Virus record (IMG/VR): IMGVR_UViG_3300036781_000607
Location: 1-55,909 of that record
Length of the DNA stretch: 55,909 nt
Source: a virus
Reading direction: 5' to 3' (one strand)
In this document: piece after piece, positions 1 to 55,909 of the stretch
Numbering within the stretch: the first letter of the stretch is position 1
Layout: the number at the start of each line of letters is the position of its first letter
The notes under the pieces: model-generated
What the model saw: the letters and a program-made list of their open reading frames with translations, nothing else
What the model was told of the DNA's origin: nothing
The model's database searches: none
Position numbers and translations under genes: made by a program

Positions 1-127
1 GATAGTGCTACCAACTGCCCGTTCACGTTTGATACAGATATACCTTTTATTGAATTACCTAAACTATCAGCCCCTATTTTACCTACATTCAACGCTTGTT
101 GTAATGACAATTCAATTTGTTGTGCTT
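1..127. repeat. Terminal direct repeat identical to 55783-55909 (circular-assembly overlap)
   Basis: Bases 1-127 (gatagtgctaccaactgcc...caatttgttgtgctt) recur exactly as the last 127 bases of the window. Confidence 0.95.
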
Positions 128-4799: not shown

Positions 4800-6098
4800 T
4801 TAAGTCGTACGGGTAAAGTCAATCTTTTTGAATGACTCAGGATAGAAAGGAGTCATCGCGATACGGGCTTCAACCAGGAAGGTAACCAAGTTCTTGAAGA
4901 AGTTTTGGTCAGCTTCAGTAGAAGTACGCAGGGTAATACCCTTTTTCTGCCATAAAGCAACACCGCGATTATAATTACCTGCCAAACCTTCCAGTGCATT
5001 AAATACTGTATGGAAGTAGATCGGAATACCACCGATGGCCAACTGGCCGGCAGTAGTAGCCTGGATAGGATAATCATATTCCTGTACATCACCTTCTGAC
5101 TTATTAATTAAAGCACTCAGATAAGCTTCCGGTGAAATCCAGATCGCGTCGCCTGGACGCAGGTTGCGGCGGGTATTCGTAAGTGCCAAAGCCATTTTAT
5201 CCCAAACATTTGAATTAGGGCTTACGTCCTCTATACCGGCATAGCTGATAGCACTTGCTACTTCACTGAATAGACCTGGTAATTCGCCTGATGCTGAAAC
5301 GCCTTTAAATACCTGGCGAGTTTCTTCGTCTTTGTATGCCCAGGGTAATTCCTGTGCCAGCCATTCAGGTGCCCCTACGATATCATCCAAAAATTCTTCC
5401 TGCACGCTTACCCAACCTGCAATCTTAATTACATTCGCTGTCTTTGGAACAGGTGTGTAGTCAAATTGTGGTTTGGTTGCACCTGCAGCAACAGAAGCGA
5501 TCTTACCGTCTTTTTTAACAAACTGAACGTAGTTGATCGCATTATTAGCAGTAGGGTATACTGGTATAATATCGCGGGCCTGTACCTGTTCGTGCGGAAT
5601 ACTGATTGGCATTAACCATTGCTGCGCAGTAGTACCAGCAGGTACACCAATTACAGCGGGAGCTTTTTCAGCTAAAAGACCAGCGCCTTCTAACTCCACA
5701 TTGAAAGATTTTTTGGTTTTAAATTCCTGCAATTGCTTCATAGCTGCACCATCTTTTTCAGCAAAAGCTTTACTGATCTCAGCTTTCAACCCTGCCATTT
5801 CAGCATTTTTCTGTTGTGCAGAAATACGCTCCATTTTAGCTTCGGCAGCTTCACGCTTTTTATCAGTTTCATCGATCTTAACTGTCAATGCAGCAATTTC
5901 AACTTTCTGAGCTTCAATAGTTGTGGTTAATTCTGTTTTCACGGCTTCCACAGCGACACCTGCGGCAGTTTCAGCAGCTACTTTAGCGGCATCGGCAGTT
6001 TCCTTCATTTCATGGCTACGCTTTTCATCGGCGTATTTTTCCTTCTGATAATCAGTAAGAGCCTCGAATTGTGCTTTGGTTAAATATTCAAATTTCAT
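4800..6098 (-). CDS. Major capsid protein (HK97 fold) with an N-terminal coiled-coil, delta-like domain
   Basis: 432 aa. The first ~130 aa are Ala/Glu/Lys-rich and coiled-coil-like. It follows the protease gene and no separate scaffold gene is present. Confidence 0.8.
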   Translation of the reverse strand: MKFEYLTKAQFEALTDYQKEKYADEKRSHEMKETADAAKVAAETAAGVAVEAVKTELTTTIEAQKVEIAALTVKIDETDKKREAAEAKMERISAQQKNAEMAGLKAEISKAFAEKDGAAMKQLQEFKTKKSFNVELEGAGLLAEKAPAVIGVPAGTTAQQWLMPISIPHEQVQARDIIPVYPTANNAINYVQFVKKDGKIASVAAGATKPQFDYTPVPKTANVIKIAGWVSVQEEFLDDIVGAPEWLAQELPWAYKDEETRQVFKGVSASGELPGLFSEVASAISYAGIEDVSPNSNVWDKMALALTNTRRNLRPGDAIWISPEAYLSALINKSEGDVQEYDYPIQATTAGQLAIGGIPIYFHTVFNALEGLAGNYNRGVALWQKKGITLRTSTEADQNFFKNLVTFLVEARIAMTPFYPESFKKIDFTRTT

Positions 6099-7789: not shown

Positions 7790-8104
7790 ATGGAAAACAA
7801 AATTCTTATGATTTCATTAACTCCTGATGAGTTAAAAAATTTAGTTAAAGAAGCGATCAGAGAATATAATTGTTCTTTATCGGGTGGCGGAAATGAAAAA
7901 ACTTTTGCAGATACTATTATAGATTGGGATCTATCTCACAAATGTATTAAAACTCTAAAAGATGCTTTTCCTAACTGTACATTAGACCAATTTTTATCTA
8001 AAAATACTGAATATACTCTACTTAGAGTAAGAGGTTTCGGTAAAAAATCCTTAGAAGAACTTGTTTCTTATCTACGTATGAAAAATTTATCTCTTAGAAA
8101 ATGA
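7790..8104 (+). CDS. RNA polymerase alpha C-terminal-domain-like (HhH) protein
   Basis: C-terminus TLLRVRGFGKKSLEELVSYLRMKNLSL resembles the RpoA CTD motif (...NLGKKSL.EI...L...GLSL). Confidence 0.5.
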   Translation: MENKILMISLTPDELKNLVKEAIREYNCSLSGGGNEKTFADTIIDWDLSHKCIKTLKDAFPNCTLDQFLSKNTEYTLLRVRGFGKKSLEELVSYLRMKNLSLRK

Positions 8105-8757
8105 ACGTTGGAATTGCAATATCAACTCATAATCGCCGGGAAATCGCCGAGCGCTCTATAGAACAGTGGAAAAAATTTCTGCCTGTTGGTGCCAAACTGG
8201 TTATCGTGGATGATGCTTCAGCAATTCCTTATCCTGGCGCTGACTATGTTTTCAGTGAACGTGCAGGTATCTCAGCAGTTAAGAACAAATGTATAGAACT
8301 GCTTGAAGATTGTAGTGATATTTTTCTGGCAGACGATGACATTTACGCGATAGATGCGAACTGGGCCACCTGGTATACGCACAGTAACCTGCAGCATGCC
8401 TGTTATATATTTGAACGTAAATTATTGTGGACTGAGCCTGATTACAAAGCGTATGAATTGCCTCGCGGTTGCCTGCTTTACTTTACAAAACACTGCATCG
8501 AAATAGCAGGGGGGTTTGATACGAATCTAAAAAATATGTATGAACATGTAAATTTATCTCAACGTATTTTCAATATGAAATTAACTCCATCAGCATACAT
8601 TGATATCCCGCATTCAAAAGGATTATTCTATTCGCATGATGAGCAAAATACGGCTCAGTCATGCTTTGATCCTTATGAACGTACTAAAGCGATCTGGGAG
8701 AACAAAAAATACTGGGAAGAAACCAAATTAAGTAATCAGTTTATACCTTATAAATGA
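8101..8757 (+). CDS. Glycosyltransferase family 2-like (GT-A)
   Basis: GIAISTHNRREIAERSIEQW...KLVIVDDAS, plus a second DDD motif. Confidence 0.7.
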   Translation: MNVGIAISTHNRREIAERSIEQWKKFLPVGAKLVIVDDASAIPYPGADYVFSERAGISAVKNKCIELLEDCSDIFLADDDIYAIDANWATWYTHSNLQHACYIFERKLLWTEPDYKAYELPRGCLLYFTKHCIEIAGGFDTNLKNMYEHVNLSQRIFNMKLTPSAYIDIPHSKGLFYSHDEQNTAQSCFDPYERTKAIWENKKYWEETKLSNQFIPYK

Positions 8758-9395
8758 TAAGTATAATTCATCCAACGCGTAACCGTTTTAAACAAGCGCA
8801 GGAAACTACTAATAAGTGGCTATCAAGAGCTGACGGAAACATAGAATATATTTTAAGTGTAGATTTAGATGACTTAAACTATAAAAACTCATCTATCGCT
8901 TTTATATCTGATAATAAATCTGCTATTGAGGCTATAAATAATGCTGCTAAGAAAGCTTCCGGTAATATATTCATCATAATTTCTGATGATACGGATTGTC
9001 CTGAACACTGGGACACATTACTTTTACAGGCGCTTGAAGGCAAATCGGATTTCTGCGCTAAGACTGATGATGGCCTGCAGCCGACTCTGATCACTATGCC
9101 GATCATGGATCGCATTTATTATGAGCGGTACGGTTATGTTTATCATCCTGATTTTTTACACATGCACTGTGATGAAGAACTTACTTGTGTTGCATTAATG
9201 ACCGGAAAATATATAAAATTACCTATTACGTTCTTACACAATCACTACACTACAGGTAAGACAGAAATCGATGATATCAATCGAAAAAATAATGCTACCT
9301 GGGCGCAAGGACAAAAAACTTTGAATGAGCATGCTAAAAATAACTTTGGAATCGAAAACCCAGTTATGCGCAGAGAGGATATTATATGGAAATAG
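8754..9395 (+). CDS. GT-A-like glycosyltransferase
   Basis: MISIIHPTRNRFKQAQETTNKW..., then IFIIISDDTD. Confidence 0.5.
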   Translation: MISIIHPTRNRFKQAQETTNKWLSRADGNIEYILSVDLDDLNYKNSSIAFISDNKSAIEAINNAAKKASGNIFIIISDDTDCPEHWDTLLLQALEGKSDFCAKTDDGLQPTLITMPIMDRIYYERYGYVYHPDFLHMHCDEELTCVALMTGKYIKLPITFLHNHYTTGKTEIDDINRKNNATWAQGQKTLNEHAKNNFGIENPVMRREDIIWK

Positions 9396-9868
9396 AAATC
9401 TGGAAATCTCTCCCTATAACTGATGATTATTTAGCATCTTCATTTGGCAGAATAAAGTCATTAAAATCAAATAAGGAAAAAATATTAAAGCCTCAAAAAG
9501 GTAAAAATGAACCTTATTATGATGTAACGTTAAGAATAAATGGTAAATCTACTATGAAAAGAATACACGTATTGGTTGCATTGGCGTTTCATCTAAATCC
9601 TGAACATAAAAAGACAGTTAATCACAAAGATGCTAATAAGTTAAATAACTACGCCTCTAATTTAGAATGGGCGACATATAAGGAAAATTTAAATCATATG
9701 ATGCTATTAAATTTAAATCCTCAATATGTAAAAGTTGTTCACTTAGAGACAGGTATTTTTTATGATAGGGCGTTAGATGCCGCAGTTGCTTATGGTATAG
9801 TTCCTTCCACTCTATACAATGCCTTAAACGGGTTTCGTAAAAATAAATTTAATATCATCGAAGTATGA
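9386..9868 (+). CDS. HNH homing endonuclease with NUMOD4-like N-terminus
   Basis: WKSLPITDDYLASSFGRIKSLK (NUMOD4-like) and VNHKDANKLNNYASNLEWATYKEN (HNH_3-like). Confidence 0.75.
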   Translation: MEIEIWKSLPITDDYLASSFGRIKSLKSNKEKILKPQKGKNEPYYDVTLRINGKSTMKRIHVLVALAFHLNPEHKKTVNHKDANKLNNYASNLEWATYKENLNHMMLLNLNPQYVKVVHLETGIFYDRALDAAVAYGIVPSTLYNALNGFRKNKFNIIEV

Positions 9869-10407
9869 TTCAACTATCAATACTTATAACGACAATGCCG
9901 ATACGGTCCAACAAGCTGGCCGATCTTCGCCAGGTTCTTGATCGCCAGTTAACGCCTGAAGTGGAAGTAGTGACGGATATTTCGATGAATTATAATATTG
10001 GTACCAAGCGCAATAAATTACTTTCTTTAGCCTCGGGAAAATATGTAGTTTTCATTGATGACGATGACCTTATCAGTTCAGACTACATTGAAAAAATACT
10101 GGAAGCTTGTAAATCTGATTGTGATTGTATTGGTATCAGTGGAGTAATCACGACAAATGGCAGGAATGAAATGCAGTGGCACATTTCCAAAGATTATATG
10201 GGTTGGTTTGAACGAAAAAATGTTTATTACCGTACGCCAAACCATATATCCCCTGTTAAACGTGAGCTGGCGCTATTGGCGGGGTTCCCAGAGATTAGTT
10301 TTGCAGAAGATCACGAATATTCGATGCGTTTGTTGCCCATGTTAAAAACTGAATTTAAGATACCAGGCATTTTATACTACTATAAATTTGAAAGTAAAAG
10401 AAGATGA
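9865..10407 (+). CDS. Glycosyltransferase family 2
   Basis: LSILITTMPIRSNKLADL... and KYVVFIDDDDLIS (DxD). Confidence 0.7.
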   Translation: MIQLSILITTMPIRSNKLADLRQVLDRQLTPEVEVVTDISMNYNIGTKRNKLLSLASGKYVVFIDDDDLISSDYIEKILEACKSDCDCIGISGVITTNGRNEMQWHISKDYMGWFERKNVYYRTPNHISPVKRELALLAGFPEISFAEDHEYSMRLLPMLKTEFKIPGILYYYKFESKRR

Positions 10408-11051
10408 ATAAAAAAGCTATAATATCATTTGCTAATGCTAATAACCGCTATGTTCAAAATATAGCGCGATTATCTGAAAGTTTACGTAATAACGCCCCGG
10501 AAATCGATTTTTTAGCCTGGATAGGAGAAAGTTCAGTTGGCGCTCCTTTACATTCTGAAAATCCATATGCCTTTAAAATATACTGTTGGGAACAAGCTTT
10601 AAAAGCAGGTTACCGGCAAATTTTATGGGTAGACGCTTCTTGTTTTGCTATTAAAAATGTTACACCTGTTTTTGATGTTTTAGATGAAGATGGATATATA
10701 GCTCAGCAGGCCGGTTATTTTTTAAATGAATGGTGCAATGATGAAACTTTAGAATATTTTGAAATATCAAGAAAAGAAACTGAATCGATCCCGATGATAG
10801 GAAACGCTGGTTTTTTAGGTCTTAATTTTGACCGAAAAGAAGCTAATCAGTTTTATGATAACTGGAAAAACTCAATGGAAGCTGGAATGTTTAAAGGTTC
10901 CTGGGAAAATCACCGTCATGATATGTCATGCAGTAGTGCTTTATGGTATCAGTGGGGGATGAAATATCAACCGGGGGATCAATGGCTACAGTATGCGGGT
11001 TTATTTGATGAAACAGCTAATGATACAATAATTTTTAAAGCGCAAGGATAA
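10404..11051 (+). CDS. Putative nucleotide-diphospho-sugar transferase-like protein
   Basis: 215 aa, AIISFANANNRY...ILWVDASCF pattern. The assignment is weak. Confidence 0.4.
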   Translation: MNKKAIISFANANNRYVQNIARLSESLRNNAPEIDFLAWIGESSVGAPLHSENPYAFKIYCWEQALKAGYRQILWVDASCFAIKNVTPVFDVLDEDGYIAQQAGYFLNEWCNDETLEYFEISRKETESIPMIGNAGFLGLNFDRKEANQFYDNWKNSMEAGMFKGSWENHRHDMSCSSALWYQWGMKYQPGDQWLQYAGLFDETANDTIIFKAQG

Positions 11052-11052
11052 A

Positions 11053-11625
11053 ATGGGAATAACTCAAAACTCTTTAGACCGTTTCAATCGGCACGTAGCA
11101 AACCTGGATACCATGCTGATCTTAGGTTGCCAAAATATGTACGGAGACACAAATTACGGTGAAATAGCCCGTGACTTTTTTACCCGTCACGGCTTCAAAG
11201 TAACTGATATTGATATTACTGGGTGCCAGGGGAGCCAGCAAATTGATCTCCGGGAACCAATTAATTTTGAAAATCAGTTCGGTATTATCATGCAGCACGG
11301 AACAGTGGAGCATATTGATGGTTCTTTATACCAGCCTTTTAAAAATATCCATGAAGCCTGTGCAGTTAAGGGTTTTATACTCCATGAAAACCCGATGACA
11401 AATAATTGGCCGAAACATGGTCAGCATTACTTTACTGAAAAATTCTATATTGAACTGGCCAAAGCCTGTAATTATGAATTGCTGGAAGTATGCTCAGAAG
11501 CAGCAATGAGTAATACAGTTGATGGATGGAATATCTGCGCAGTCCTTCGCAAAGTAGAAGATGCTGAATTTATCAGTGAAGAAGAATTTAACAAAATTTA
11601 TTCAAAACATATTAAATCAAAATAA
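11053..11625 (+). CDS. Possible SAM-dependent methyltransferase-like protein
   Basis: TMLILGCQNMYGD...TDIDITGCQG loosely resembles MTase motifs I and II. The call is weak. Confidence 0.35.
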   Translation: MGITQNSLDRFNRHVANLDTMLILGCQNMYGDTNYGEIARDFFTRHGFKVTDIDITGCQGSQQIDLREPINFENQFGIIMQHGTVEHIDGSLYQPFKNIHEACAVKGFILHENPMTNNWPKHGQHYFTEKFYIELAKACNYELLEVCSEAAMSNTVDGWNICAVLRKVEDAEFISEEEFNKIYSKHIKSK

Positions 11626-11627
11626 TT

Positions 11628-11909
11628 ATGTTGTTCAAAGTAGGAAATGAAATCATAGATACCGAAACTACACCGGTAGCCTTAATCTTTAAAACTAAAG
11701 AGGAAGGTAAAGTTGTAGGTGAAATTATTGCCAATATTAAAAATGGGGATAGCCAATATTCAGTTGAAAATAATGGTAACTGGTGGATGATGTTTCCTGC
11801 CGGAGTATCAAAAGAAGAAATTGATAAATGGTCAATTCTTACACCTGAACAAAAAGAATTACTCGAAAAAGCACCTTGTGTTTCAACTATAATAACCAAT
11901 GAGCTATGA
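11628..11909 (+). CDS. Hypothetical protein
   Basis: 93-aa ORF whose stop overlaps the next ATG (ATGA). Confidence 0.5.
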   Translation: MLFKVGNEIIDTETTPVALIFKTKEEGKVVGEIIANIKNGDSQYSVENNGNWWMMFPAGVSKEEIDKWSILTPEQKELLEKAPCVSTIITNEL

Positions 11910-12187
11910 AACCAATAGATTTCCCCGGTCGTAATATTATTTTTGCTGAAGATCAGCCGGAATACCAACCATTGCCTGCCATTTTAATGCCTGACCCCGA
12001 AGCGGAAGTAATTTCCTGTTAGGAATTGTCTGATGAAGAAATAGCCACTATCGTTAAAAACAGGTGTCTGTTTATTTCACAACTTTGCTTCAGGCATGAA
12101 AATGAAAAAGGCGAGATGGTGAACAATGCTTTACAACCAATTTTACCGATGACCCAATTAGGTGATAATATAATGCTACTACCATGA
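11906..12187 (+). pseudogene. 93-codon gene interrupted by a single in-frame TAG at 12020-12022 (nonsense mutation or read-through)
   Basis: ATG 11906 overlaps the upstream stop (ATGA) and its TGA at 12185-12187 overlaps the next ATG (ATGA). The only interruption is TAG after ...EVISC, followed by ELSDEEIATIV... Confidence 0.55.
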
Positions 12188-12474
12188 GTTTTACAAAATT
12201 AATTCCTGTATTCGTACAAGAAATGCCAGAAATTAAAGAACAAGGTATTTTGTATATTTCGTATAAATACGAAACTGCAATTCATTTATGTGCTTGCGGT
12301 TGTGGGGAGTTAACTATTACTCCATTTTCTCAAGGATGGAAAATAATTAACACTCCTATACAAGTTGATGGACAGAATCAAAATATTATTACTATACGCC
12401 CCTCAATAGGTAATCAAAAATTACCTTGTAAATCACACTATTTTATAACAAATAATCAAATTGATTGGAGATGA
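12184..12474 (+). CDS. Small Cys-rich protein (CxCGCGE ... PSI ... C.SHYF..N motifs), DUF6527-like from memory
   Basis: HLCACGCGELTITP...IRPSIGNQKLPCKSHYFITNNQIDW. Confidence 0.5.
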   Translation: MSFTKLIPVFVQEMPEIKEQGILYISYKYETAIHLCACGCGELTITPFSQGWKIINTPIQVDGQNQNIITIRPSIGNQKLPCKSHYFITNNQIDWR

Positions 12475-13091
12475 ATTCAGTAGCCCAAAACAAAGAGGAC
12501 CTGTTCATACAGGAATACTTCGGTGATTTTAAAGGTACTTTACTCGATATTGGATCGAATGACGGAATTACATTTTCAAATTCACGTTTACTTATCGAAA
12601 ATGGATTTAAAGCGCACCTTGTTGAACCTTCCTCGGTTTTCTATGACCTGAAACGCTTGTATCTCGGCAATCAGAATGTACATTGTTACAATGTGGCTAT
12701 TGGAGAACAGCAGGGAATTGTCGATTTTTACGAATCAGGTGCTCATGTTCCGAATGGTACTGATAAAGCCCTGGTGTCTACACTGGATTTCAACGAAACA
12801 CAGCGGTGGGCGAATGTACAATTCAACAAGATCAAAGTCAATGTGGTACCGTTCAATTTCCTGTGGGAAATGACCGACTTTGCAAAATTCGACTTTATAT
12901 CGATTGACGCCGAAGGGCATGATCTCACTATTTTAAGGCAAATTGACCTGGATGCTGTAAGGTGTAAATGCCTGATCATTGAACATAATGGTAGTGAGGA
13001 TTTAAAAACTGATTTCTGCAGGTATTGCGTTGATCAATTCGGTATGAAATTAGCACTTGTGAATGCTGAAAATATTATCTTTATACGTTAA
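12465..13091 (+). CDS. FkbM-family methyltransferase
   Basis: LLDIGSNDGITFSNS...HLVEPSS...VAIGEQQGIVDFYES...ISIDAEGHDLTIL matches the FkbM pattern. Confidence 0.7.
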   Translation: MEMNSVAQNKEDLFIQEYFGDFKGTLLDIGSNDGITFSNSRLLIENGFKAHLVEPSSVFYDLKRLYLGNQNVHCYNVAIGEQQGIVDFYESGAHVPNGTDKALVSTLDFNETQRWANVQFNKIKVNVVPFNFLWEMTDFAKFDFISIDAEGHDLTILRQIDLDAVRCKCLIIEHNGSEDLKTDFCRYCVDQFGMKLALVNAENIIFIR

Positions 13092-13104
13092 AACCCATAA
13101 AACA

Positions 13105-14172
13105 ATGAACGAGACTCTATATGTGATCACACCGATCTTTAACCCCCGGCGCTTTACCAGCCGTATCAAACTTTACAACCAATTCGCAAAATATATGCAG
13201 GATTGTGGTGTCAAACTGATCACAGTAGAAGTCGCCTTTGCTGACCGGCCCTTCGAGGTTACCAATCATTATAACCCTTATCATTTGCAACTCAGGAGCC
13301 CCGTAGAACTATGGCATAAAGAACGTGCTATCAACCTGGGAATTGAGCATCTTAAAAAATTACATCCGGAAGTTAAGAAAGTCGCCTGGATAGACGCGGA
13401 TGTTCATTTCAGCAATCCTAACTGGGTAACAGATACATTATATGCTCTTGATCATTATCATGTTGTACAGATGTTCTCACAAGCTACTAACCTGGGGCCG
13501 AAGCATGAAATACTCGATAAATTTGAAGGTGCTTTTGCTCACTGGCGTAATCGTAAACCTCCTGTTCATGTTTGTGATTATCCTTTATCTGAACTTGGTG
13601 GCGGCCATCCGGGTTTAGCCTGGGCCGCAACTATTGATATACTGGAAAAACTTGGCGGTTTATTAGATCGATGTGTTCATGGTAGTGGTGACAGCCACAT
13701 GGCAAACGCGTTACGTGGTGATGTGCATACTTATTATTTAAAACGTGAAACATCTGAAGCCTTTAAAAAGATGCTGGATGACTGGCAGGCGCTGTGCGAT
13801 AAATTCGTAAAACGAAACGTTGGGCATATCGAAGGTGTGTGTAATCATTACTGGCATGGTGCTTACCAAAAAAGAGGTTATAATACCCGGTGGGACGTTA
13901 TATGCCATCATGAGTATGATCCTTTTGTAGATATCGAGTATGATGACAACGGTTTATACAAATTCACAGGTAATAAGCCTGATTTTGAGCAAGACCTGCG
14001 TTTATCAATGATCGCACGTAATGATGATGATAATGTCATTACGTATGACCCTGCAAAAATTGTAAAAGAGGGGGATAAGATCGGTAATAAAGTACTACGC
14101 CGCGTTTCTGCCGGCTTCGCAGAGAAAAATCCGGACTTAGGTTTAAAAGAAGGTGATTTATGGCCGATGTAA
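13105..14172 (+). CDS. Putative GT-A-like glycosyltransferase (355 aa from the ATG at 13105)
   Basis: LYVITPIFNPRRFTSRIKLY...VAWIDADVHF. The ATG at 13105 avoids overlap with the FkbM gene. Confidence 0.5.
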   Translation: MNETLYVITPIFNPRRFTSRIKLYNQFAKYMQDCGVKLITVEVAFADRPFEVTNHYNPYHLQLRSPVELWHKERAINLGIEHLKKLHPEVKKVAWIDADVHFSNPNWVTDTLYALDHYHVVQMFSQATNLGPKHEILDKFEGAFAHWRNRKPPVHVCDYPLSELGGGHPGLAWAATIDILEKLGGLLDRCVHGSGDSHMANALRGDVHTYYLKRETSEAFKKMLDDWQALCDKFVKRNVGHIEGVCNHYWHGAYQKRGYNTRWDVICHHEYDPFVDIEYDDNGLYKFTGNKPDFEQDLRLSMIARNDDDNVITYDPAKIVKEGDKIGNKVLRRVSAGFAEKNPDLGLKEGDLWPM

Positions 14173-14717
14173 AAATTCATTATATACAACCATATAGAAC
14201 CGATAAAAATATTGGTAAAGCAATCAATGAAACTATCCAAAATCTACGGTACGAACCTGATGATTTTATCATATTAACCGATCACGATACTTTATGGCTG
14301 CTGCCCGACTCTAAGGCCCAGGTGGAACGAATCCTTATGGGCACTGATTATGATATCCTCGGGTGCATGACCAACCGTATACGTTCTCCTGAGCAGCTTA
14401 TAAACGGCAGGTTCATTGAGAACGACAGTATCCGTGATCATATCGTGCTGGCTGAGAAATGCCGGGAGAATGCAGGAGATTACGTGAAAGAGGCCCACAA
14501 CGCGGTAGCGGCTTTTTGCATGTGTTTCCGGGTATCAGTGTGGGTGCGTGTCAGTGGTTTCGTGGAGAATGTTTTAACGTTCGATTCCGAGTTCTGCCGC
14601 GAGGCACGGGTGACCTGCCGGGCTAAAGTCGGTATTATGTGTGGCGTGTATGTGTGGCACAGCTACCGGCTTGATAAGAAAAATCCAAAATCATATATTA
14701 AACACTTAGAAAAATAA
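14160..14717 (+). CDS. Putative glycosyltransferase (GT2-like)
   Basis: DDFIILTDHDTLWLLPD (DxD-like) and AFCMCFRVSVW resemble GT2. Confidence 0.5.
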   Translation: MADVKIHYIQPYRTDKNIGKAINETIQNLRYEPDDFIILTDHDTLWLLPDSKAQVERILMGTDYDILGCMTNRIRSPEQLINGRFIENDSIRDHIVLAEKCRENAGDYVKEAHNAVAAFCMCFRVSVWVRVSGFVENVLTFDSEFCREARVTCRAKVGIMCGVYVWHSYRLDKKNPKSYIKHLEK

Positions 14718-14722
14718 AAATT

Positions 14723-14950
14723 ATGGAAAAGGACAGATTAAATGCGATCATGCAAATTTTTGCTGAACTTGATCACGGAGAACAAGTAGATTTATTTTTG
14801 AATCTTAAAGATGCACTTTTACAAAACCGTGCTGCGCGTCGGGAAGAACATGAAAAAATACTGCAGGTACAACAAGAAAATATCAAAACGATCTTTGCCG
14901 GTAATGATATGATTATCAGTAATAATAGCGCAGCAGTAAAAACCGGTTAA
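14723..14950 (+). CDS. Hypothetical protein (last gene of the cassette)
   Basis: 75-aa ORF followed by a terminator hairpin. Confidence 0.45.
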   Translation: MEKDRLNAIMQIFAELDHGEQVDLFLNLKDALLQNRAARREEHEKILQVQQENIKTIFAGNDMIISNNSAAVKTG

Positions 14951-14960
14951 TTATTTAACC

Positions 14961-14989
14961 GCCGGTGAGTCCTTTGCCGGCTATTTTTT
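14961..14989 (+). terminator. Intrinsic terminator closing the glycosyltransferase cassette
   Basis: GCCGG-tgagtcctttg-CCGGC followed by TATTTTTT. Confidence 0.6.
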
Positions 14990-15088
14990 GTATATTTATA
15001 GTTCGATGTTCAGGATCGTAACTTTTAAAACATTATAGCTATTGGTGAGTAGGGCCTGAACCCCGAAAGCCAGTGGCTTTTTTATTTT

Positions 15089-15619
15089 ATGGAACTTACA
15101 CAAGAATTAGTTAGAGAGTTATTTAATTATCATGAGGACGGTTATTTGATCTGGAAAATAAAGCCCAGACAAAATGTAAATATTGGTGATATAGCCGGTC
15201 ATTTAACTATTGATAGAGGTGAAAAACGTCATTCAACTATGATTTATGGAAAAGGTTACCGTATATCAAGATTAATTTTCTTTTACCATACGGGTAAATG
15301 GCCTCAAACTATAGACCACATAAACCGCGTTACAACTGATAATAGAATACAAAATTTACGTGCTGCTACTCGGGCTGAAAATAGTCGAAACAGAAATCCA
15401 TCTAAAAATTCTTCCTCAAAATATCTCGGGGTAGGTTGGCATAAAGCTACTCAAAAATGGTGCGCTAAAATAAAAGCAGAAGGTAAGGATAAACATTTAG
15501 GAGTTTTTACATCTGAAATTACTGCTGCTTTAATTTATAATAAGTCAGCGGTAAAATATTTTGGTGAATTTGCAAACCTAAATATTATAATTCCTTCAAA
15601 TGCTCAAAATAACTTTTAG
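15089..15619 (+). CDS. HNH-AP2 homing endonuclease (paralog of 41054-41569)
   Basis: IDHINRVTTDNRIQNLRAATRAEN (HNH) and SKYLGVGWHKATQKWCAKI...LGVF...AALIYNKSAVKYFGEFANLN (AP2 domain). Confidence 0.8.
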   Translation: MELTQELVRELFNYHEDGYLIWKIKPRQNVNIGDIAGHLTIDRGEKRHSTMIYGKGYRISRLIFFYHTGKWPQTIDHINRVTTDNRIQNLRAATRAENSRNRNPSKNSSSKYLGVGWHKATQKWCAKIKAEGKDKHLGVFTSEITAALIYNKSAVKYFGEFANLNIIIPSNAQNNF

Positions 15620-25617: not shown

Positions 25618-25666
25618 GCGCAACACCAGAAACGGTTTGCGCTTTACCTGGTAAAAAACTTTAAAA
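25618..25666 (+). promoter_or_regulatory. Hairpin plus ACCTGGTAAAAAACTTTAAAA leader unit 1
   Basis: GCGCAA-caCCagaaacGGt-TTGCGC at 25618-25642, then the 21-nt box at 25646-25666, then the ATG at 25670. Confidence 0.6.
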
Positions 25667-26082: not shown

Positions 26083-26131
26083 ACCCCGCACTGAAACAAA
26101 TGCGGGGTTAACCTGGTAAAAAACTTTAAAA
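26083..26131 (+). promoter_or_regulatory. Hairpin plus leader unit 2 (box identical to unit 1)
   Basis: ACCCCGCA-ctgaaacaaa-TGCGGGGT at 26083-26108, then the identical 21-nt box at 26111-26131, then the ATG at 26134. Confidence 0.6.
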
Positions 26132-26133
26132 CT

Positions 26134-26526
26134 ATGAATTTATTATTTTGGAAACACAAAAAAGAAGCGCATGTAATTAAAAAGCAGTGTTACGACAAAT
26201 TACCGTCAACCTTGCAGAATCACTACCATCCAAGTGATGAACAACCTACGCATCACTATGACGATGACAGCGGACTGATCACGGGTATAGTTATTGGCGA
26301 AATGCTGGCCGATAACAGCACGGCACCTGATAGCTCACCAGCAGATAATAGTCCTTCATTTGATGGATTTGGCGGCGGAGATTTTGGTGGAGGTGGCTCA
26401 TCCGACAGTTTTGATACCCCGGATTCAGGCGGATCAAGCTATGATAGTGGTAGCTCTTATGACAGTGGTAGCTCTTATGACAGTGGTAGCTCTTATGACA
26501 GTGGTAGTAGTTCATCTGATTATTAA
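26134..26526 (+). CDS. Low-complexity Gly/Ser/Asp-rich protein with SSYDSG tandem repeats
   Basis: 130 aa, ...GGGDFGGGGSSDSFDTPDSGGSSYDSGSSYDSGSSYDSGSSYDSGSSSSDY. Confidence 0.5.
   Translation: MNLLFWKHKKEAHVIKKQCYDKLPSTLQNHYHPSDEQPTHHYDDDSGLITGIVIGEMLADNSTAPDSSPADNSPSFDGFGGGDFGGGGSSDSFDTPDSGGSSYDSGSSYDSGSSYDSGSSYDSGSSSSDY
26434..26505 (+). repeat. Four tandem 18-bp repeats encoding SSYDSG
   Basis: The unit agctcttatgacagtggt occurs three times exactly, preceded by a diverged copy. Confidence 0.85.
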
Positions 26527-26547
26527 TCATTGCTAATCCTGCCAACG

Positions 26548-26590
26548 CCCCGACGCCATAAACCGGCTCGGGGTTAACCTGGTGAAATGA
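26548..26590 (+). promoter_or_regulatory. Hairpin plus partial leader unit 3
   Basis: CCCCGAcGCC-ataaacc-GGCTCGGGG at 26548-26573, then TTAACCTGGTGAAA. Confidence 0.5.
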
Positions 26591-26670
26591 AATTGATATT
26601 ACTTTCAAAAAGTTAAAGCAGGAGGTCACATGTAAGGTTCATAATTGGTTTAGGTTTAAGTAAACCATTA

Positions 26671-26715
26671 GCGTAACGCCAGCAACGGTTTACGCTTTTG
26701 GTAGTAAAAAGAAAA
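26671..26715 (+). promoter_or_regulatory. Hairpin plus diverged leader unit 4
   Basis: GCGTAA-cgCCagcaacGGt-TTACGC at 26671-26695, same architecture as unit 1 with a compensatory C:G to T:A pair. It is followed by TTTTGGTAGTAAAAAG and the ATG at 26721. Confidence 0.55.
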
Positions 26716-26720
26716 CAATT

Positions 26721-27158
26721 ATGAAAATAACAGTTGAAGTAAATGGTAAGCCAGTAGAAATTGAGCTTACAAAAGATCAGGTTGCTTTCGTTAAAAAGCA
26801 ACCACAAAAGATCACTGATCGGATTAAAACTTTTCAGGATGTACTTGATTACATTGGCTTGGAAAGGGCTAATGAATTTTATAAATCTTGTGAAAATTGT
26901 TCAGATCACAATATTGCTGACAAGCAGGTAGAACTGATTTGCGAAGTTTTAAACGAAGGTTGGATAGCAAATCCTTTTAATACAAAGCAATACAAATATT
27001 ATCCTTATTTCCAGGTAAGCGGTTCTGCCTTTGTGTTCCACAACTGCGCTTGGTACCGGATTACGATTGTCGGCTCGCGGCTTTGCTACAAAAATGCTGA
27101 ACTGGCTACATACGCAGGAAAACAATTCGTAGACATTTACACTAAACTATTATCATAA
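26721..27158 (+). CDS. DGR variable protein 1 (145 aa), paralog of 27158-27574
   Basis: Contains VR1. The two share MK..(I/V).VNGK.VEIELT.DQ...VKK...KITDRIKT, NEGW, QYKY.PYF, GSAFVF and IVGSRLC. Confidence 0.8.
   Translation: MKITVEVNGKPVEIELTKDQVAFVKKQPQKITDRIKTFQDVLDYIGLERANEFYKSCENCSDHNIADKQVELICEVLNEGWIANPFNTKQYKYYPYFQVSGSAFVFHNCAWYRITIVGSRLCYKNAELATYAGKQFVDIYTKLLS
27021..27086 (+). repeat. DGR variable repeat VR1 (one codon shorter than the TR)
   Basis: Aligns to TR 27585-27653 with 11 substitutions, all at TR adenines, and one 3-nt deletion. It diverges from the TR after ...ctttgc. Confidence 0.75.
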
Positions 27159-27574
27159 TGAAACTTCCTATCCAGGTAAACGGAAAAACCGTTGAAATTG
27201 AGCTCACTAACGATCAGATCGAAATAGTGAAAAAAGCAAATCAGAAAATTACTGATCGTATTAAAACTGAAGAAGATATTTGGCGCGAGGCAGGAGTCAC
27301 TAAAAGTTTTTGGGGGAAACTACATGTGTTTGATCAGTTAGCTTTGTTAGGTTCTATTTTGAATGAAGGGTGGAAACCTGATTGGAATGATTCAAGTCAG
27401 TACAAGTATGAACCATACTTTAAATGGAACGGTTCTGCCTTTGTGTTCGACAGCTACATCGCTTGGAGCCAGCATACGATTGTCGGCTCGCGGCTTTGCT
27501 TTAAAAGTAGCGACTTAGCTATTTATACAGGAAAACAGTTTATCGATTTATATAATAAAATATTGAGTTTGTAA
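27158..27574 (+). CDS. DGR variable protein 2 (138 aa)
   Basis: Contains VR2, which ends 22 codons before the C-terminus. Confidence 0.85.
   Translation: MKLPIQVNGKTVEIELTNDQIEIVKKANQKITDRIKTEEDIWREAGVTKSFWGKLHVFDQLALLGSILNEGWKPDWNDSSQYKYEPYFKWNGSAFVFDSYIAWSQHTIVGSRLCFKSSDLAIYTGKQFIDLYNKILSL
27431..27506 (+). repeat. DGR variable repeat VR2
   Basis: 76 nt, collinear with the TR. There are 11 mismatches, every one at an A in the TR: AAC>GAC, AAC>AGC, AAC>ATC, GAA>GCT, AAC>AGC, AAT>CAT, AAT>ATT, AGC>GGC, CAG>CGG, CTA>CTT. Confidence 0.9.
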
Positions 27575-27584
27575 TTACCGGCGC

Positions 27585-27660
27585 GGTTCTGCCTTTGTGT
27601 TCAACAACTACAACGAATGGAACCAGAATACGAATGTCAGCTCGCAGCTATGCTTTAAAA
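27585..27660 (+). repeat. DGR template repeat (TR)
   Basis: Non-coding copy between target 2 and the RT. It is rich in AAY codons when read in the VR frame (4 AAC, 2 AAT). Confidence 0.9.
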
Positions 27661-27752
27661 CCTTATTGCAAACTTTACCAGCAAGGTAGAAAAATAAAAA
27701 TTTAAAAGGGTTGTGGTAGTCTCCGGACGAAGCAAACCTTATAAAAAGCAAA

Positions 27753-28715
27753 ATGAAAAGATTAGGCAATCTATATACGGAGATTTGTAGCAAGGATAAC
27801 ATCATTCTGGCTGATCAGAGAGCGCGTAAGCGAAAAGCTAAACAAAGAACTATTAAATTATTTGATGTAAACAGAGAGGCTAATTTAGCTTCTATTGTTA
27901 ACATTTTATCTGAGCAAACTTACAAAGTCTCTGGGTATGAAACTTTCAAAACTTTTGAAGGTAAAGAACGTCTGATATTTAAATTGCCTTATACTGATCG
28001 TGTAGTTCAACATGCTATAATGAATGTATTGGAACCGATCTTTAGAAATTACTTTATAGCCCATACTTATAGTTGTATAAAAGGCCGCGGTATTCACAGG
28101 GCAAAAAATGATGTGGAGAAAGCTTTGAAACAAGGCTTTATGTATTGCCTGAAACTTGATGTAGTTAAATTTTATCCATCAGTCGATCACGAGATTTTGA
28201 AACAGCTTTTAAGAACAAAATTCAAGGATCAGAAATTATTAGGTTTACTGGATACGATCATTGAATCAGCACCAGGTTTACCAATAGGCAACTATCTGAG
28301 TCAGCCTTTAGCTAATTTTTATCTGACACCTTTTGACCGCTGGATAAAAGCAAAGAAATTTCCCTATTTCAGGTATGCAGACGACATGGTCATTTTATCA
28401 TCGAATAAGGCTGAGCTTCAAACTTTACTGCATGAAATTATAGGTTATCTGAAAGATAATTTAAAGCTTGATATCAAAGGAAATTACCAGGTATTTCCTG
28501 TAGCGGCCAGAGGTATTGATTTTGTAGGCTACCGGATTTTTCATACGCACGTAAAACTGCGTAAGTCAATTAAGCTCCGTTATATTAAAACCATGTTGAA
28601 TAATCCGTCAGATACTTCAAAAGCAGCGTATAACGGATGGTTAAAACATTGTGATTCAAAAAACTTAAAAAATAAATATGACACAAGTAATATTTACACT
28701 GATCATCATAGCTGA
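27753..28715 (+). CDS. DGR-type reverse transcriptase
   Basis: N-terminus MKRLGNLYTEICSKDNIILADQRARKRK, the IGNYLSQ motif characteristic of DGR RTs, and catalytic RYADDMVIL. Confidence 0.9.
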   Translation: MKRLGNLYTEICSKDNIILADQRARKRKAKQRTIKLFDVNREANLASIVNILSEQTYKVSGYETFKTFEGKERLIFKLPYTDRVVQHAIMNVLEPIFRNYFIAHTYSCIKGRGIHRAKNDVEKALKQGFMYCLKLDVVKFYPSVDHEILKQLLRTKFKDQKLLGLLDTIIESAPGLPIGNYLSQPLANFYLTPFDRWIKAKKFPYFRYADDMVILSSNKAELQTLLHEIIGYLKDNLKLDIKGNYQVFPVAARGIDFVGYRIFHTHVKLRKSIKLRYIKTMLNNPSDTSKAAYNGWLKHCDSKNLKNKYDTSNIYTDHHS

Positions 28716-28893
28716 ATTAGGAATTTTAACTTATCAAAGTGGAAAGAGTCGTAGTAAAAATTAGACCTCAGAACAGCGAAGCATGGTTCCAGCGCAGATG
28801 GCTATGGACCTGGTGGACCGTAAAGTTTAAAATAGGCTCAACAGGCGAAGTACTGGATTGGGCTGATGCGCAGAACGTACATATCATTATACA

Positions 28894-29232
28894 GTGACTG
28901 ATAATCAGAAAAAGTTAAGGGCCACTACCACGCATTGCAGGTATTGTGGCCAGGCGTTCCACGGCAAAGTAACGGCAACGTTTGACCACTTCTACCCACT
29001 GGACAAACAAGGCCCGAACAGGATGTGGAACAGGTTCGTAGTCTGCAGGGCGTGTAACCAGGACAAAGGCAATAAAATGCCGCAGGAGTTTATAGTGCAC
29101 CTGCTGCATAAGATAAAGCATAACAAGGATATTAACACTAAATATTTCACCCGCGCCAGTAAAACGATAGCTAATATGCTGATCATTGAAGAACAAATCT
29201 GGCCATTATTTGAAGGAAAGGATATATTATGA
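28894..29232 (+). CDS. HNH endonuclease
   Basis: GTG start. CRYCGQ...FDHFYPLDKQGPN..WNRFVVCRACNQDKGNKMP. Confidence 0.8.
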   Translation: MTDNQKKLRATTTHCRYCGQAFHGKVTATFDHFYPLDKQGPNRMWNRFVVCRACNQDKGNKMPQEFIVHLLHKIKHNKDINTKYFTRASKTIANMLIIEEQIWPLFEGKDIL

Positions 29233-30088: not shown

Positions 30089-30324
30089 AAGAAGAAATGG
30101 CAATTATCAGTGACATACACGTAGGCATTCGTGATACGAATCAAGTGATATGTTGGTTTACAGTGACTATGATAGGTTCAGGTTCACTACAAATAATAAG
30201 CATTCAAGAAATGGTTGATTTAATGCAACGAGAGGGTATTTATAAGTTAGAAGATGTTAACGGAAAACCTTGTATCGTTGAGACTGATAGTGGCATGTGC
30301 AAATTTAAAAGATTACTAAAGTGA
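30079..30324 (+). CDS. Hypothetical protein
   Basis: 81-aa ORF. Confidence 0.45.
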   Translation: MVMKEEMAIISDIHVGIRDTNQVICWFTVTMIGSGSLQIISIQEMVDLMQREGIYKLEDVNGKPCIVETDSGMCKFKRLLK

Positions 30325-30869
30325 TCACTTTCCAGGAACATAAAGAAACAGGCTATGCCATGCGGACCTGGGATAATGCCAGGCTCAGTGACCTGACCAT
30401 TGCTTTTGCGATAAACTTTAATACACCTGGTGAGATACTGACTCGGAAAGCTGCTTATGGAAAATATCACGGAGTGGAATTATTGGAATTATTGGAATTT
30501 CCGGAACAACCAGTGCTTACTACTTTATTAGAAATGAGGCGTAGACAGGCTACCTGCATTAATATTGCAGGTAACGGTATTTACTCCCTCAGTAAATTAA
30601 TAGACCAGATAACTGCTGATCAACTGATGTTTAATTTTGTGAAAAAACTGGCTATGAACTGTATGTGGAGCTTTTCAATACGTTCTGGCGGTCAAACTGG
30701 TGTTGATGAAGCAGCGTTAAAAGCCGGGGACAAACTTGGCCTGGAAACAATCTGCCTGGCGCCGAAGCACTGGATGTTCAGGGACATAAACGGCAGGGAT
30801 ATTATTGGCCAGGAGGCTTTGTTCCTGAAACGTTTTGGAGAGAAATATGATGCAACTGATATATTATGA
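30321..30869 (+). CDS. SLOG / YpsA / MoCo-carrier-like protein
   Basis: IRSGGQTGVDEAALKAGDKLGLETICLAPKHW resembles the SGGQTGVD..AL..A...G motif of that family. Confidence 0.45.
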   Translation: MITFQEHKETGYAMRTWDNARLSDLTIAFAINFNTPGEILTRKAAYGKYHGVELLELLEFPEQPVLTTLLEMRRRQATCINIAGNGIYSLSKLIDQITADQLMFNFVKKLAMNCMWSFSIRSGGQTGVDEAALKAGDKLGLETICLAPKHWMFRDINGRDIIGQEALFLKRFGEKYDATDIL

Positions 30870-41577: not shown

Positions 41578-42126
41578 TTGAGTAAAATGAACACAGAGAC
41601 AAAAGTTTCCACCCCGGAGTTAGTTAGATTTTCATATGTAAATTTAGAAAATCCTAAATGCGCTCCCGGATCCACTGAGGCCAAATTTGGCATGAGTGTG
41701 ATCATCCCGAAGTCCAATAAAAAGACTTTGAAACTGATTGAAACCGCAATCGAAGCGGCTATTGAAGTAGGTAAAGAAAAACACGGCAAGTCTTTTAAAG
41801 CCAAAAAACTTCCGCTGCGGGACGGCGATGAAGAACGTGAAGATGCAGCTTATGCAAATTCTTTCTTCCTGAATGCCAACTCCAAAAATCGCCCTGGTAT
41901 GGTTGACAAAAAAGTGCAGCCGATCCTTGATCTTAAAGAGATCAAATCAGGCGACTGGGGTAATGTGAGCCTGAACTTTTACCCGTTCAATGTCAACGGT
42001 AACAGCGGTATCGCTGTGGGCCTTAACCACGTACAGAAGGTAAAAGATGGCGAACCTCTGGGTAGCCAGACAAATGCGGCCGACGAATTTGACGAAATCG
42101 AATTTGAAGAAGATGACATTCTTTAA
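41578..42126 (+). CDS. DUF2815-type phage single-stranded DNA-binding protein
   Basis: VSTPELVRFSYVNLENPK...YGMSVIIPK-like N-terminus and an acidic tail DEFDEIEFEEDDIL. Confidence 0.7.
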   Translation: MSKMNTETKVSTPELVRFSYVNLENPKCAPGSTEAKFGMSVIIPKSNKKTLKLIETAIEAAIEVGKEKHGKSFKAKKLPLRDGDEEREDAAYANSFFLNANSKNRPGMVDKKVQPILDLKEIKSGDWGNVSLNFYPFNVNGNSGIAVGLNHVQKVKDGEPLGSQTNAADEFDEIEFEEDDIL

Positions 42127-43048: not shown

Positions 43049-43352
43049 AAGTAGTCAAGTTAGTAGGCTGATCCGGTTTCGGAATAACATTGACAGTTGG
43101 ACTGTCGCCGGTCACTGTAGGATTGCCAACAGTGTTCACCAAAGCATCATCTTTTTTAGCGCTTCCTTGTGATGAGCCAAAATAATAACCGGTTGCAGCC
43201 GCTACTGCGGCAACCATAGCAATTAATATTTGCGGATCCGGTTTTATGTCCCTGATTGAACACATGTAGAAATAACCAAAGCCGAGCACCACTATGATGA
43301 TCGCTAATATTGGTTTGATGTTGATGTTTAAAAATGAGTTTTGATCGTTCAT
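43047..43352 (-). CDS. Two-TM membrane protein (holin candidate)
   Basis: ILAIIIVVLGFGYFYM and ILIAMVAAVAAATGYYF. It lies directly downstream of the endolysin gene on the minus strand. Confidence 0.45.
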   Translation of the reverse strand: MNDQNSFLNINIKPILAIIIVVLGFGYFYMCSIRDIKPDPQILIAMVAAVAAATGYYFGSSQGSAKKDDALVNTVGNPTVTGDSPTVNVIPKPDQPTNLTT

Positions 43353-43993
43353 AATAATTTAAGTTGTTGAAGTGTTCCGTTAAAATAATCCAGGTCAAGA
43401 TCACCACCGGTCAGGTTACCATGTTGTGTCCCGAACTGTGAATTTTGCCAGAATTGCCAGTCGGTAAATCCTTTCGGCAGATGTGGTATATGATCCTGGT
43501 AACCTGCTATCCATAAGTAATATTTACTGAACGGTACAGAGTCGCCCAGGTATTCATTTAAAAAGTTTGGTGAACAATAAACAATCGGCTTACGGCCTGT
43601 TCGTGTTTGCACAGTTTCAAGTAAAGAAAGCGCATTGTCACAGCATTTCGATTTATTGTTCAGGATGTACTGGTCAAGTTGCCGGCTGATCGCAGGTGTA
43701 GCGCCCACCTGGTTCTCAATATCTATCACAGGAGGCATTATACCCGGCAATGACCAGTCTACTCCACGATTGAGAAAATTGTCTGCCTGAACTTCCGGAT
43801 CAGCTTCTGCCACCCAGAAATCATAACATCCAACCTGCAGGTTTTTGGTGCGTGCAGTATGCCAATTGTTTTGAAAAGCCGGATCGTGAAAAGAAATACC
43901 CTGCGCAGCTTTTATAAATACAAACTGGAACTCTGGGGAGAGAGTATTCCAGTTTATATTATTTTGATGTGATATATCAAAACCTTTAATCAT
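43349..43993 (-). CDS. GH25 muramidase (endolysin)
   Basis: MIKGFDISHQNNINWNTL...FVFIKAAQGISFHDPAFQNNW matches the GH25 N-terminal pattern. Confidence 0.85.
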   Translation of the reverse strand: MIKGFDISHQNNINWNTLSPEFQFVFIKAAQGISFHDPAFQNNWHTARTKNLQVGCYDFWVAEADPEVQADNFLNRGVDWSLPGIMPPVIDIENQVGATPAISRQLDQYILNNKSKCCDNALSLLETVQTRTGRKPIVYCSPNFLNEYLGDSVPFSKYYLWIAGYQDHIPHLPKGFTDWQFWQNSQFGTQHGNLTGGDLDLDYFNGTLQQLKLL

Positions 43994-55600: not shown

Positions 55601-55909
55601 CCTCAACAGCTATAGCTGTGGTAGCTGTTTTTGTAGCCCCTCCTGCAAATTGCGCGTTCTGGGCAAAAAATAAAAAGTCAACGGCAAGTAGTCCGATTGA
55701 CCGGGCAAATGTACCTACAGATGTTGAATCAAATGTTCTTACCAGGTCACGGGAAATCTGCCGGGCGCCGAATAGATTATTTGATAGTGCTACCAACTGC
55801 CCGTTCACGTTTGATACAGATATACCTTTTATTGAATTACCTAAACTATCAGCCCCTATTTTACCTACATTCAACGCTTGTTGTAATGACAATTCAATTT
55901 GTTGTGCTT
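52629..55909 (-). CDS. Tape measure protein, C-terminal part (joins 1-833 across the circular junction)
   Basis: Over 1000 aa, Ala/Gln-rich and coiled-coil-like, with a Gly-rich hydrophobic segment near the C-terminus. The frame stays open to the window end. Confidence 0.85.
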   Translation of the reverse strand, partial: AQQIELSLQQALNVGKIGADSLGNSIKGISVSNVNGQLVALSNNLFGARQISRDLVRTFDSTSVGTFARSIGLLAVDFLFFAQNAQFAGGATKTATTAIAVEGEVAAGSALSTGALGAAFASLLTPTSLIVLGIAAAGAGLIAYENSQKNATKSATEHIKALREQKQALDDYLSTLSESQKVQSAAAAEIANSVNELNSFVNAINNNKDSIQGETEAFENLQGKFPEYFAGITQSQIGTQAFTDAISKAIDGLKNLALANAAFKLSGDAAVSQIANQVALDDSVQKALAAYKQLEAARKQVANTPSVSLGTGGSSGQGAAAILESLEKAYAAANDQVFKYSAAVNGASAQQDKFNKLAAQYQKQTTANQQPDNRIGFLQNEISQLEKILPKAQNYQEVLAKIKADQAELDVLLGKGGGVSSADPYIAIGNSLTEIINKIGALANDSGLVGYALKVQKINDNYIKINESLSIQAQKLAALADKPRTPKQQKEFDADKSGLNTGENNSALAQQKELSDASIEEAQKTDDAIQKINDQFGIKQQAGYNEELSRIKRLYDNIIAESKKFGDTQAELRIKAAADAAFPQAIQAADAKYIEQETETYGKIVDIANEAFQLLDNGEQARTDKIILEGQRRITQAQADFNKLRDIATGAKAPQATFDQLTAVEKQVTDVINLSIKAQVSEVISKPFADALQGAVQGFVSNFYTSLTTLGAQRQTIDDKYSQQLQQQQIDYANSVAAGDGKITAAQNESTINQINNLKKLEEQSTTSFEAIFSSLVTKFQSTFNESILNSFTKQFTESLGKRLLTPTAKQLTISPDQQAAQQLAATLKSASGDLGTQIKQAGDDFAAKVTQAAVSVANSFAGIVSPGLLSGASGGSALGAVDTTAEGVVTQQSTFNTGVIATADKFGENIDAAGGSFADQAVAASRLSQQIQTTGATTSSNKLSTAAAGLAAAASLAGSIVSGLGKPTNTATSALGGALTGAGEGALVGTALGGPIIGTAIGAVVGAIGGIFSASKAKKQEELQQQQLEQQQETNELLARQNALAYTTSIIGRMTQQGIVTGVDLNSFGQLTATVSGKNIQFVLDRAANGR
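55783..55909. repeat. Terminal direct repeat identical to 1-127
   Basis: Exact 127-nt identity to the window start. Confidence 0.95.

Follow-up and report, generated by a model that had tools for sequence, protein, structure and literature searches.

The diversity-generating retroelement (DGR) of Bordetella phage BPP-1, organized as mtd-avd-TR-brt, transfers sequence with adenine-specific changes from a template repeat (TR) to a variable repeat (VR) in a single target gene, which encodes a tail-fibre tip protein with a C-type lectin fold. Its TR lies just upstream of the reverse transcriptase (RT) gene, with a structured spacer RNA between the two, and the end of its VR is richer in GC than that of the TR. 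To our knowledge, the structurally characterised variable proteins of DGRs all have C-type lectin folds, with immunoglobulin (Ig)-like folds proposed for some; the targets of phage DGRs are almost always tail proteins. DGRs of lineage 3, a group that "notably lacks avd genes", show a target-TR-RT layout (Wu et al., 2018; PMC5758913), with sublineage 3A reported only from Bacteroides and relatives (PMC5758913), and the DGR of crAssphage LMMB has been published as a target-TR-RT cassette without avd (PMC7290462). Here we describe a DGR located between positions 26,721 and 28,715 of the IMG/VR virus record IMGVR_UViG_3300036781_000607, analysed over its full length of 55,909 nt (hereafter the window).

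The first 127 nt of the window (1-127) are identical to the last 127 (55783-55909), indicating that this phage genome is complete, either circular or terminally redundant, and ~55,782 bp long. On its + strand, two tandem paralogous target genes (target 1, 26721-27158, 145 aa; target 2, 27158-27574, 138 aa, its start codon overlapping the target 1 stop) are followed by a TR, a spacer and an RT gene. We consider it very probable that these form a functional DGR without Avd in the complete ~55.8-kb genome of a phage that probably infects Bacteroidota, and the DGR machinery belongs to a known Avd-less lineage. In the mechanism that we propose, the TR and a structured spacer 3' of it would be transcribed together, the RT would copy the TR RNA into cDNA with misincorporation opposite adenines, and this cDNA would replace the homologous stretch of the VR in target 2 (VR2), and probably also that in target 1 (VR1). 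Some 11-13 putative surface residues (98-110 of target 2) would be recoded in this way without ever yielding a stop codon, and a pair of elements resembling the initiation of mutagenic homing (IMH) site and its TR counterpart (IMH*) would keep the transfer one-way.

A 74-77-nt sequence is present in three collinear copies (27020-27093, 27430-27506 and 27584-27660), and an A-tolerant scan of both strands of the whole window revealed no further copy. The last of these, on the + strand, is the non-coding TR (77 nt, 24 A and 53 non-A), which starts 10 nt past the stop of target 2 and ends 92 nt before the RT gene, on the same strand. VR2 (27430-27506, + strand) covers approximately residues 92-116 of the 138 residues of target 2, and VR1 (27020-27093, + strand), which aligns to the TR with a gap, lies within target 1 and was found again by an A-tolerant scan using the 3' half of the TR. 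The preliminary description of this DNA had placed a 76-nt TR at 27585-27660 and its VR2 at 27431-27506, and both are indeed found there, although each copy extends one base further 5', to 27584 and 27430, for a length of 77 nt. Its reading of the TR in the VR frame (AAC AAC TAC AAC GAA TGG AAC CAG AAT ACG AAT) was reproduced, as was its report, 92 nt downstream of the TR, of a 320-aa RT with IGNYLSQ and YADD motifs. Our recount likewise agreed with its 11 mismatches between TR and VR2 (TR positions 27603, 27607, 27613, 27616, 27617, 27622, 27627, 27634, 27639, 27646 and 27650), in every one of which an A in the TR is replaced by G, C or T in VR2, with 0 of the 53 non-A positions changed; the hypergeometric chance of 11 of 11 mismatches falling on A, given 24 A in 77 nt, is 3.7e-7.

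The mutagenised tract of the TR is rich in AAY codons and contains 18 adenines (27603-27639), which together allow 6.9e10 variants at the DNA level and 1.5e10 at the protein level and cannot give rise to a stop codon. Nine of these 18 adenines are changed in VR2, in line with the mutational density of ~50% reported for active DGRs (bioRxiv 10.1101/2024.11.15.621889), and the corresponding hypervariable part of VR2 spans 27449-27485 (residues 98-110). VR2 ends 22 codons ahead of the target 2 stop (68 nt left), and hence not at the extreme C-terminus, an arrangement that is unusual among lectin-type targets (PMC5758913). In VR1, 10 of the 12 substitutions relative to the TR are at TR-A positions, and an in-frame deletion removes 3 nt (TR 27610-27612). 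The two non-A differences, a TT to AC change at TR 27655-27656, sit at the extreme 3' end, past the homing boundary, and A-specific differences that VR2 does not share occur at TR 27603, 27621, 27625 and 27628.

Judged from near-identical relatives, which differ almost exclusively at TR-adenine sites of their VRs, the DGR family is active. Homologues of target 2 are conserved everywhere but in the VR-coded residues. Within the same 90%-identity cluster, differences are restricted to residues 98-108 (nine between P0003 and P0268, eight between P0004 and P0269), and between P0027 and P0275, orthologues of target 1, all differences fall within residues 107-116. A search of related contigs for polymorphism at A sites, proposed in the preliminary description as a check, gave the expected pattern: five closely related contigs supply 12 VRs, in which variation affects 20 of 26 TR-A positions as opposed to 6 of 51 non-A positions, and the near-identical contigs L024 and L007, from one study, are separated by 24 substitutions in ~1450 nt, 23 of which are at TR-adenine positions of two VRs. 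The same cassette, with one to four (mostly two) small tandem targets followed by a TR and then an RT, was found in 53 of the 79 genome loci fetched, nearly all of them from Bacteroidota or other FCB-group organisms. The TR/VR pairs of those loci, 111 in number, contain 2202 mismatches, 76% of them at TR-A.

The 3' ends of the repeats show a second kind of difference. At TR 27646 (A in the TR, G in the VRs) and 27650 (A in the TR, T in the VRs) the bases are invariant in 12 of 12 VRs of close relatives, so that two of the 11 mismatches, adenine-specific as all of them are, are fixed rather than variable. In the wider clade, the three 3'-most sites with this type of mismatch read A,A,A in 35 of 38 TRs and G,G,T in 91 of 93 VRs. 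One of the three fixed changes, that at 27650, is synonymous (CTA to CTT), so that selection at the protein level cannot account for its fixity. The conserved 3' end of VR2 (27482-27506, + strand, GTCGGCTCGCGGCTTTGCTTTAAAA) and the corresponding end of the TR (27636-27660, + strand, GTCAGCTCGCAGCTATGCTTTAAAA) differ at the fixed positions, with the VR end (GGCTCGCGGCTTTGC) being GC-richer than its TR counterpart (AGCTCGCAGCTATGC), as in BPP-1. From their sequences, this suggests that the fixed TR/VR differences form a putative IMH (VR) and IMH* (TR)-like pair, which would mark the 3' limit of information transfer.

Several observations weigh against a functional DGR in this genome. The 3-nt deletion relative to the TR implies that VR1 may be decaying or may be the product of imprecise homing. 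A BPP-1-type DNA hairpin or cruciform 3' of the VRs was not found in folds of 27480-27560 (z = +0.1) and 27067-27147 (z = +1.3), and family, profile and Foldseek searches, the last with predicted structures, detected no C-type lectin or Ig fold for the target. Current activity in this particular genome is inferred from sister genomes. In addition, the TR-RT module has been lost or truncated in relatives, which points to its being dispensable. L002-L004 keep the TR with an RT cut to a 135-aa N-terminal fragment. L007 and L024, together with the L026 locus, have lost both TR and RT by a clean deletion whose junction corresponds approximately to window positions 27574-28740, and no RT is found within ±10 kb of an RT-less locus of the L007/L024 type. 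L001 carries three tandem targets, and the 10 kb retrieved from it contain neither a TR nor an RT. Similar losses are documented in crAss-like genus I, where incomplete cassettes are numerous (PMC7290462). As for the RT-less L007 and L024, their A-site-only differences could possibly be explained by action in trans from RT-bearing relatives, by recurrent deletion or by recombination. L002 (positions 5597-6004), a related 55.9-kb phage, combines its truncated RT with a TR and three VRs, one of which lies 4 kb off, at 9580-9664.

Some of these observations would fit a DGR that is active but diversifies VR2 alone, VR1 being no longer a substrate. Beyond its deletion, VR1 has the TT to AC change just 3' of the shared end, and of the three VRs of L024 and L007 that of the middle paralogue has remained static while the other two changed. 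VR1 nevertheless retains the full IMH-like end GTCGGCTCGCGGCTTTGC and has A-specific differences of its own, and orthologues of target 1 also vary only in the VR (P0027 versus P0275); we therefore regard restriction to VR2 as unlikely, while giving it some weight. A relic DGR, once active and now inactive in this genome, its VRs being frozen alleles, seems to us improbable. It would agree with the truncated RT of a related phage that has kept its TR (L002), with the clean TR-RT deletion of L007/L024, with the identity of the target P0011 of the RT-truncated lineage in 29 contigs, and with the indel in VR1. Here, by contrast, the RT is full length with all its catalytic motifs, the TR and the spacer RNA are intact (133.7 bits against a model of the clade), and VR2 is free of any non-A mismatch, which argues that no ordinary drift has taken place since the last homing event.

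The functional reading is further supported by the RT itself (27753-28715, + strand), which is full length and collinear with bRT of BPP-1. It matches PF00078 (E 2.3e-18) and phrog_1423 (E 2e-105) and carries the motifs LKLDVVKFYPSVDH, PIGNYLSQ and YADD (in RYADD). A full-length alignment with the bRT of the BPP-1 record shows that LKLDxxKFYPSxDH is retained, with PIGNYLSQ in place of the PIGSLTSQ of bRT and YADD in place of YMDD, so that both share IGxxxSQ and YxDD. Its best match among solved structures is 8ub7_A (E 6.5e-38, 134 bits), a 328-aa RT whose sequence is that of BPP-1 Brt. Matches to other classes in the PDB are far weaker: group II and Cas-associated RTs reach at most 65 bits (5.5e-17), retron-type RTs ~1e-15 and AbiK 5e-7, and the RTs of the defence-associated DRT class also fall below 65 bits. 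Among phage RTs, those of crAss-like phages come closest, with 50-53% identity (44% for crAssphage LMMB), and the best RTs of 54 genome loci, mostly from Bacteroidota, are 57-60% identical. Based on similarity and motifs rather than a phylogeny, we thus classify it as a DGR-type RT; the preliminary description had named clustering with retron, group II intron or Abi RTs as the outcome that would refute its reading, and the comparison of E-values, likewise one of similarity and not of trees, favours BPP-1 bRT by 6.5e-38 against 5.5e-17 for the next class.

That the RT belongs instead to one of these other classes (retron, group II intron, or Abi/DRT defence), the repeat being an ordinary partial gene duplication, has next to no probability: its top NCBIfam match is a group II RT/maturase model (E 3.5e-32) in a collection that holds no DGR model, and PADLOC lists DRT and Cas-associated RT models, but all of these matches fall far under the family cut-offs, the score of bRT is double that of any group II RT, and an ordinary duplication would neither put 11 of 11 differences on one base nor repeat that in 111 TR/VR pairs. 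In NCBIfam the RT scores 111.9 bits against a cut-off of 300 for group II TIGR04416, 56.9 against 235 for the retron model and 62 against 200 for Drt3a, and its best PADLOC match is to a generic RT only. Both a retron and a group II intron were considered individually and rejected, on these scores and because an Rfam scan of 26500-29000 returned no RNA family of either kind; the 320-aa RT is moreover too short for a maturase/endonuclease domain.

No Avd-type family was detected in Pfam scans of six neighbouring ORFs and of most of the other small and mid-sized ORFs, which were concatenated into three composites, and a phmmer search with BPP-1 Avd as query gave no match at E<=10 in the six-frame translation of the window. 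Since published lineage-3 DGRs also do without it, Avd is not universal among DGRs. The target-TR-RT layout, the missing avd and an RT similar to Bacteroidota and crAss-like DGR RTs (by similarity, not by tree) place the window DGR with lineage 3. The likeness to crAss-like and other lineage-3 DGRs extends from the layout and the RTs (44-53% identical) to a VR ending in a similar GSRL motif and to the frequency of incomplete or RT-less cassettes among relatives. The targets set them apart: in crAss-like phages the VR occupies the extreme C-terminus of large tail or tail-collar proteins, and the targets of LMMB and other lineage-3 DGRs have been assigned to C-type lectin classes, whereas the targets here are small, tandemly duplicated, encoded in an early/replication module and without a detectable lectin fold. 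In comparison with BPP-1, the window DGR shares adenine-specific TR-to-VR transfer, a collinear RT of the same family and a TR just upstream of the RT with a structured spacer RNA between them, but it has no Avd, two tandem targets instead of one, ~140-aa replication-module proteins in place of a tail-fibre tip, VRs ending 22 codons before the stop and followed by no DNA hairpin, and a spacer of RT-17 rather than RT-10 type. The term textbook, which the preliminary description used of the adenine-specific TR/VR mismatches, does not fit the element in full, given the absence of Avd, the position of the VRs ahead of the stop, the small, apparently non-tail targets and their lack of a recognisable lectin fold.

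Directly after the RT lie a Trp-rich 52-aa ORF (28739-28897) and an HNH endonuclease gene (28894-29232). Because both are conserved in relatives with and without the RT, we do not count them as part of the DGR. The HNH endonuclease was considered as a DGR accessory protein and rejected, given its occurrence in RT-less relatives as well and its absence from the recurrent neighbours in the genome loci.

The 92-nt spacer between TR and RT (27661-27752, + strand) is a conserved structured RNA, in which an A-rich linker connects a hairpin to a three-tier stem with UGGUAG and CGAA. It resembles the Rfam family RT-17 (RF03020; match at 27671-27755) in its position directly upstream of an RT gene, its hairpin, its UGGUAG...CGAA core and its AAAAGCA tail, but at 31.1 bits the window copy falls short of the gathering score (40.4). 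The spacer of the relative L012 passes this threshold (41.4 bits), and that of the crAss-like phage cr55_1 shows a similar RT-17-like match at 32.9 bits. A covariance model built from seven spacers (R1) detects the element immediately 5' of the RT gene at 58 loci. Pairing in the resulting alignment reaches 88% of cells (35-45% in slid controls), and 18 of 21 pairs carry compensatory changes; these counts lean towards structure, because the alignment was fitted to the model. The single-sequence fold of TR plus spacer is not significant alone (z = -0.9), only the comparative analysis being informative. Since covariation in 58 loci supports the structure despite the sub-threshold score, we treat the window spacer as a divergent RT-17 relative. 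Weinberg et al. (2017) tied only RT-10 to a DGR, as the TR-RT spacer of BPP-1 (PMC5737381); the position of RT-17-like RNAs between TR and RT in the present loci indicates that they, too, are DGR spacer RNAs. By analogy, the spacer would be the counterpart of that of BPP-1, positioning and priming cDNA synthesis.

The two targets have phrog_11581, an uncharacterised family, as their sole family match (E 7.8e-18 for target 1, which also matches a local hidden Markov model of the family with E 9.5e-53), and neither has a Pfam, NCBIfam or PADLOC match above cut-off. Their family is very large: at 50% identity and E<=1e-3 it comprises 5040 clusters, nearly all of them 130-170 aa long, and it is represented by 193 loci in species-representative genomes, nearly all of them from Bacteroidota or other FCB-group organisms; a tblastn search against 50,697 phage records gave no match. 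Two AlphaFold2 models (pLDDT 84.5 and, for target 2, a confident 89.6; pTM 0.71 and 0.78) put the variable residues in a beta-hairpin, on its second strand, and in the loop that follows. Two Foldseek searches of the PDB with these predicted structures gave best E-values of 0.5-1 and TM scores of at most 0.26, with no lectin or Ig fold among the matches, and a profile search of PDB sequences returned nothing better than E 0.01, to CagS. Matches in BFVD are limited to uncharacterised phage proteins. In hhalign comparisons with two large, RT-adjacent proteins, the tail protein of cr55_1 and the target of L016, only the GSRL end of the VR matches, at a probability of 1-6%. A likeness of the N-terminal hairpin-helix to ZapA (Foldseek E ~1 and one JGI annotation) was judged insignificant.

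The genomic position of the targets is unlike that of tail genes. The window encodes a major head protein, portal, large terminase, primase-helicase, helicase, DNA polymerase and exonuclease, and the DGR lies among + strand replication/early genes, ~18 kb away from the region (46.8-55.9 kb) that holds the large presumed tail genes, so that its targets may not be tail proteins. Relatives keep the DGR in the same replication/early placement, and its recurrent neighbours in the genome loci look replication-type, judging from their translations. The targets are most likely ligand- or protein-binding, and would present a diversified binding surface on a small protein. More speculatively, and with a probability that we put low, they may represent an undescribed non-lectin DGR scaffold, forming a very large family (at 50% identity, more than 5000 clusters) whose members, ~130-160 aa long, lack signal peptides and are always encoded among replication/early genes in mostly Bacteroidota phages and prophages; such proteins could be intracellular binders, for instance of a variable host defence or other host factor, and the TR-RT module may act on them in trans.

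Further features of the genome were noted outside the cassette. Upstream of the targets, a 130-aa ORF without any family match (26134-26526) has a C-terminal tail rich in Ser, Tyr, Asp and Gly, encoded by three 18-nt tandem repeats (26440-26507). A GC-rich hairpin is present in each of the intergenic regions at 26083-26117 and ~26545-26583, both ending in the 14-mer GGGGTTAACCTGGT, and positions 25643 and 26108 carry copies of a similar motif, TT(T/A)ACCTGGTAAAAAACTTTAAAA; these elements may combine a terminator with a phage promoter or regulatory signal. A block of + strand genes (8101-15619) lies between structural genes on the - strand and encodes two family-2 glycosyltransferases (8754-9395 and 9865-10407), an FkbM-type methyltransferase (12465-13091) and two HNH_3 endonucleases (9386-9868, also with NUMOD4, and 15089-15619). 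A sugar-modification cluster of this kind is unusual in a phage of such size. Other products include a cpYpsA SLOG-domain protein (30321-30869), an Enc34-type single-stranded DNA-binding protein (41578-42126) and, on the - strand, a GH25 lysozyme (43349-43993).

As a DGR, the cassette adds little to what has been described: DGRs of phages, lineages without Avd and cassettes with several targets are all on record. We found no published account of the small-target cassette in the literature, though it may have been catalogued in earlier surveys (e.g. Wu et al., 2018). What may be noteworthy is the target: a conserved DGR clade, widespread in Bacteroidota, diversifies a tiny replication-module protein without a recognisable fold. 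Identifying the partner of this protein would show whether DGRs serve beyond receptor recognition, and the relatives with and without an RT offer a natural system for the study of DGR action in trans within a phage population.

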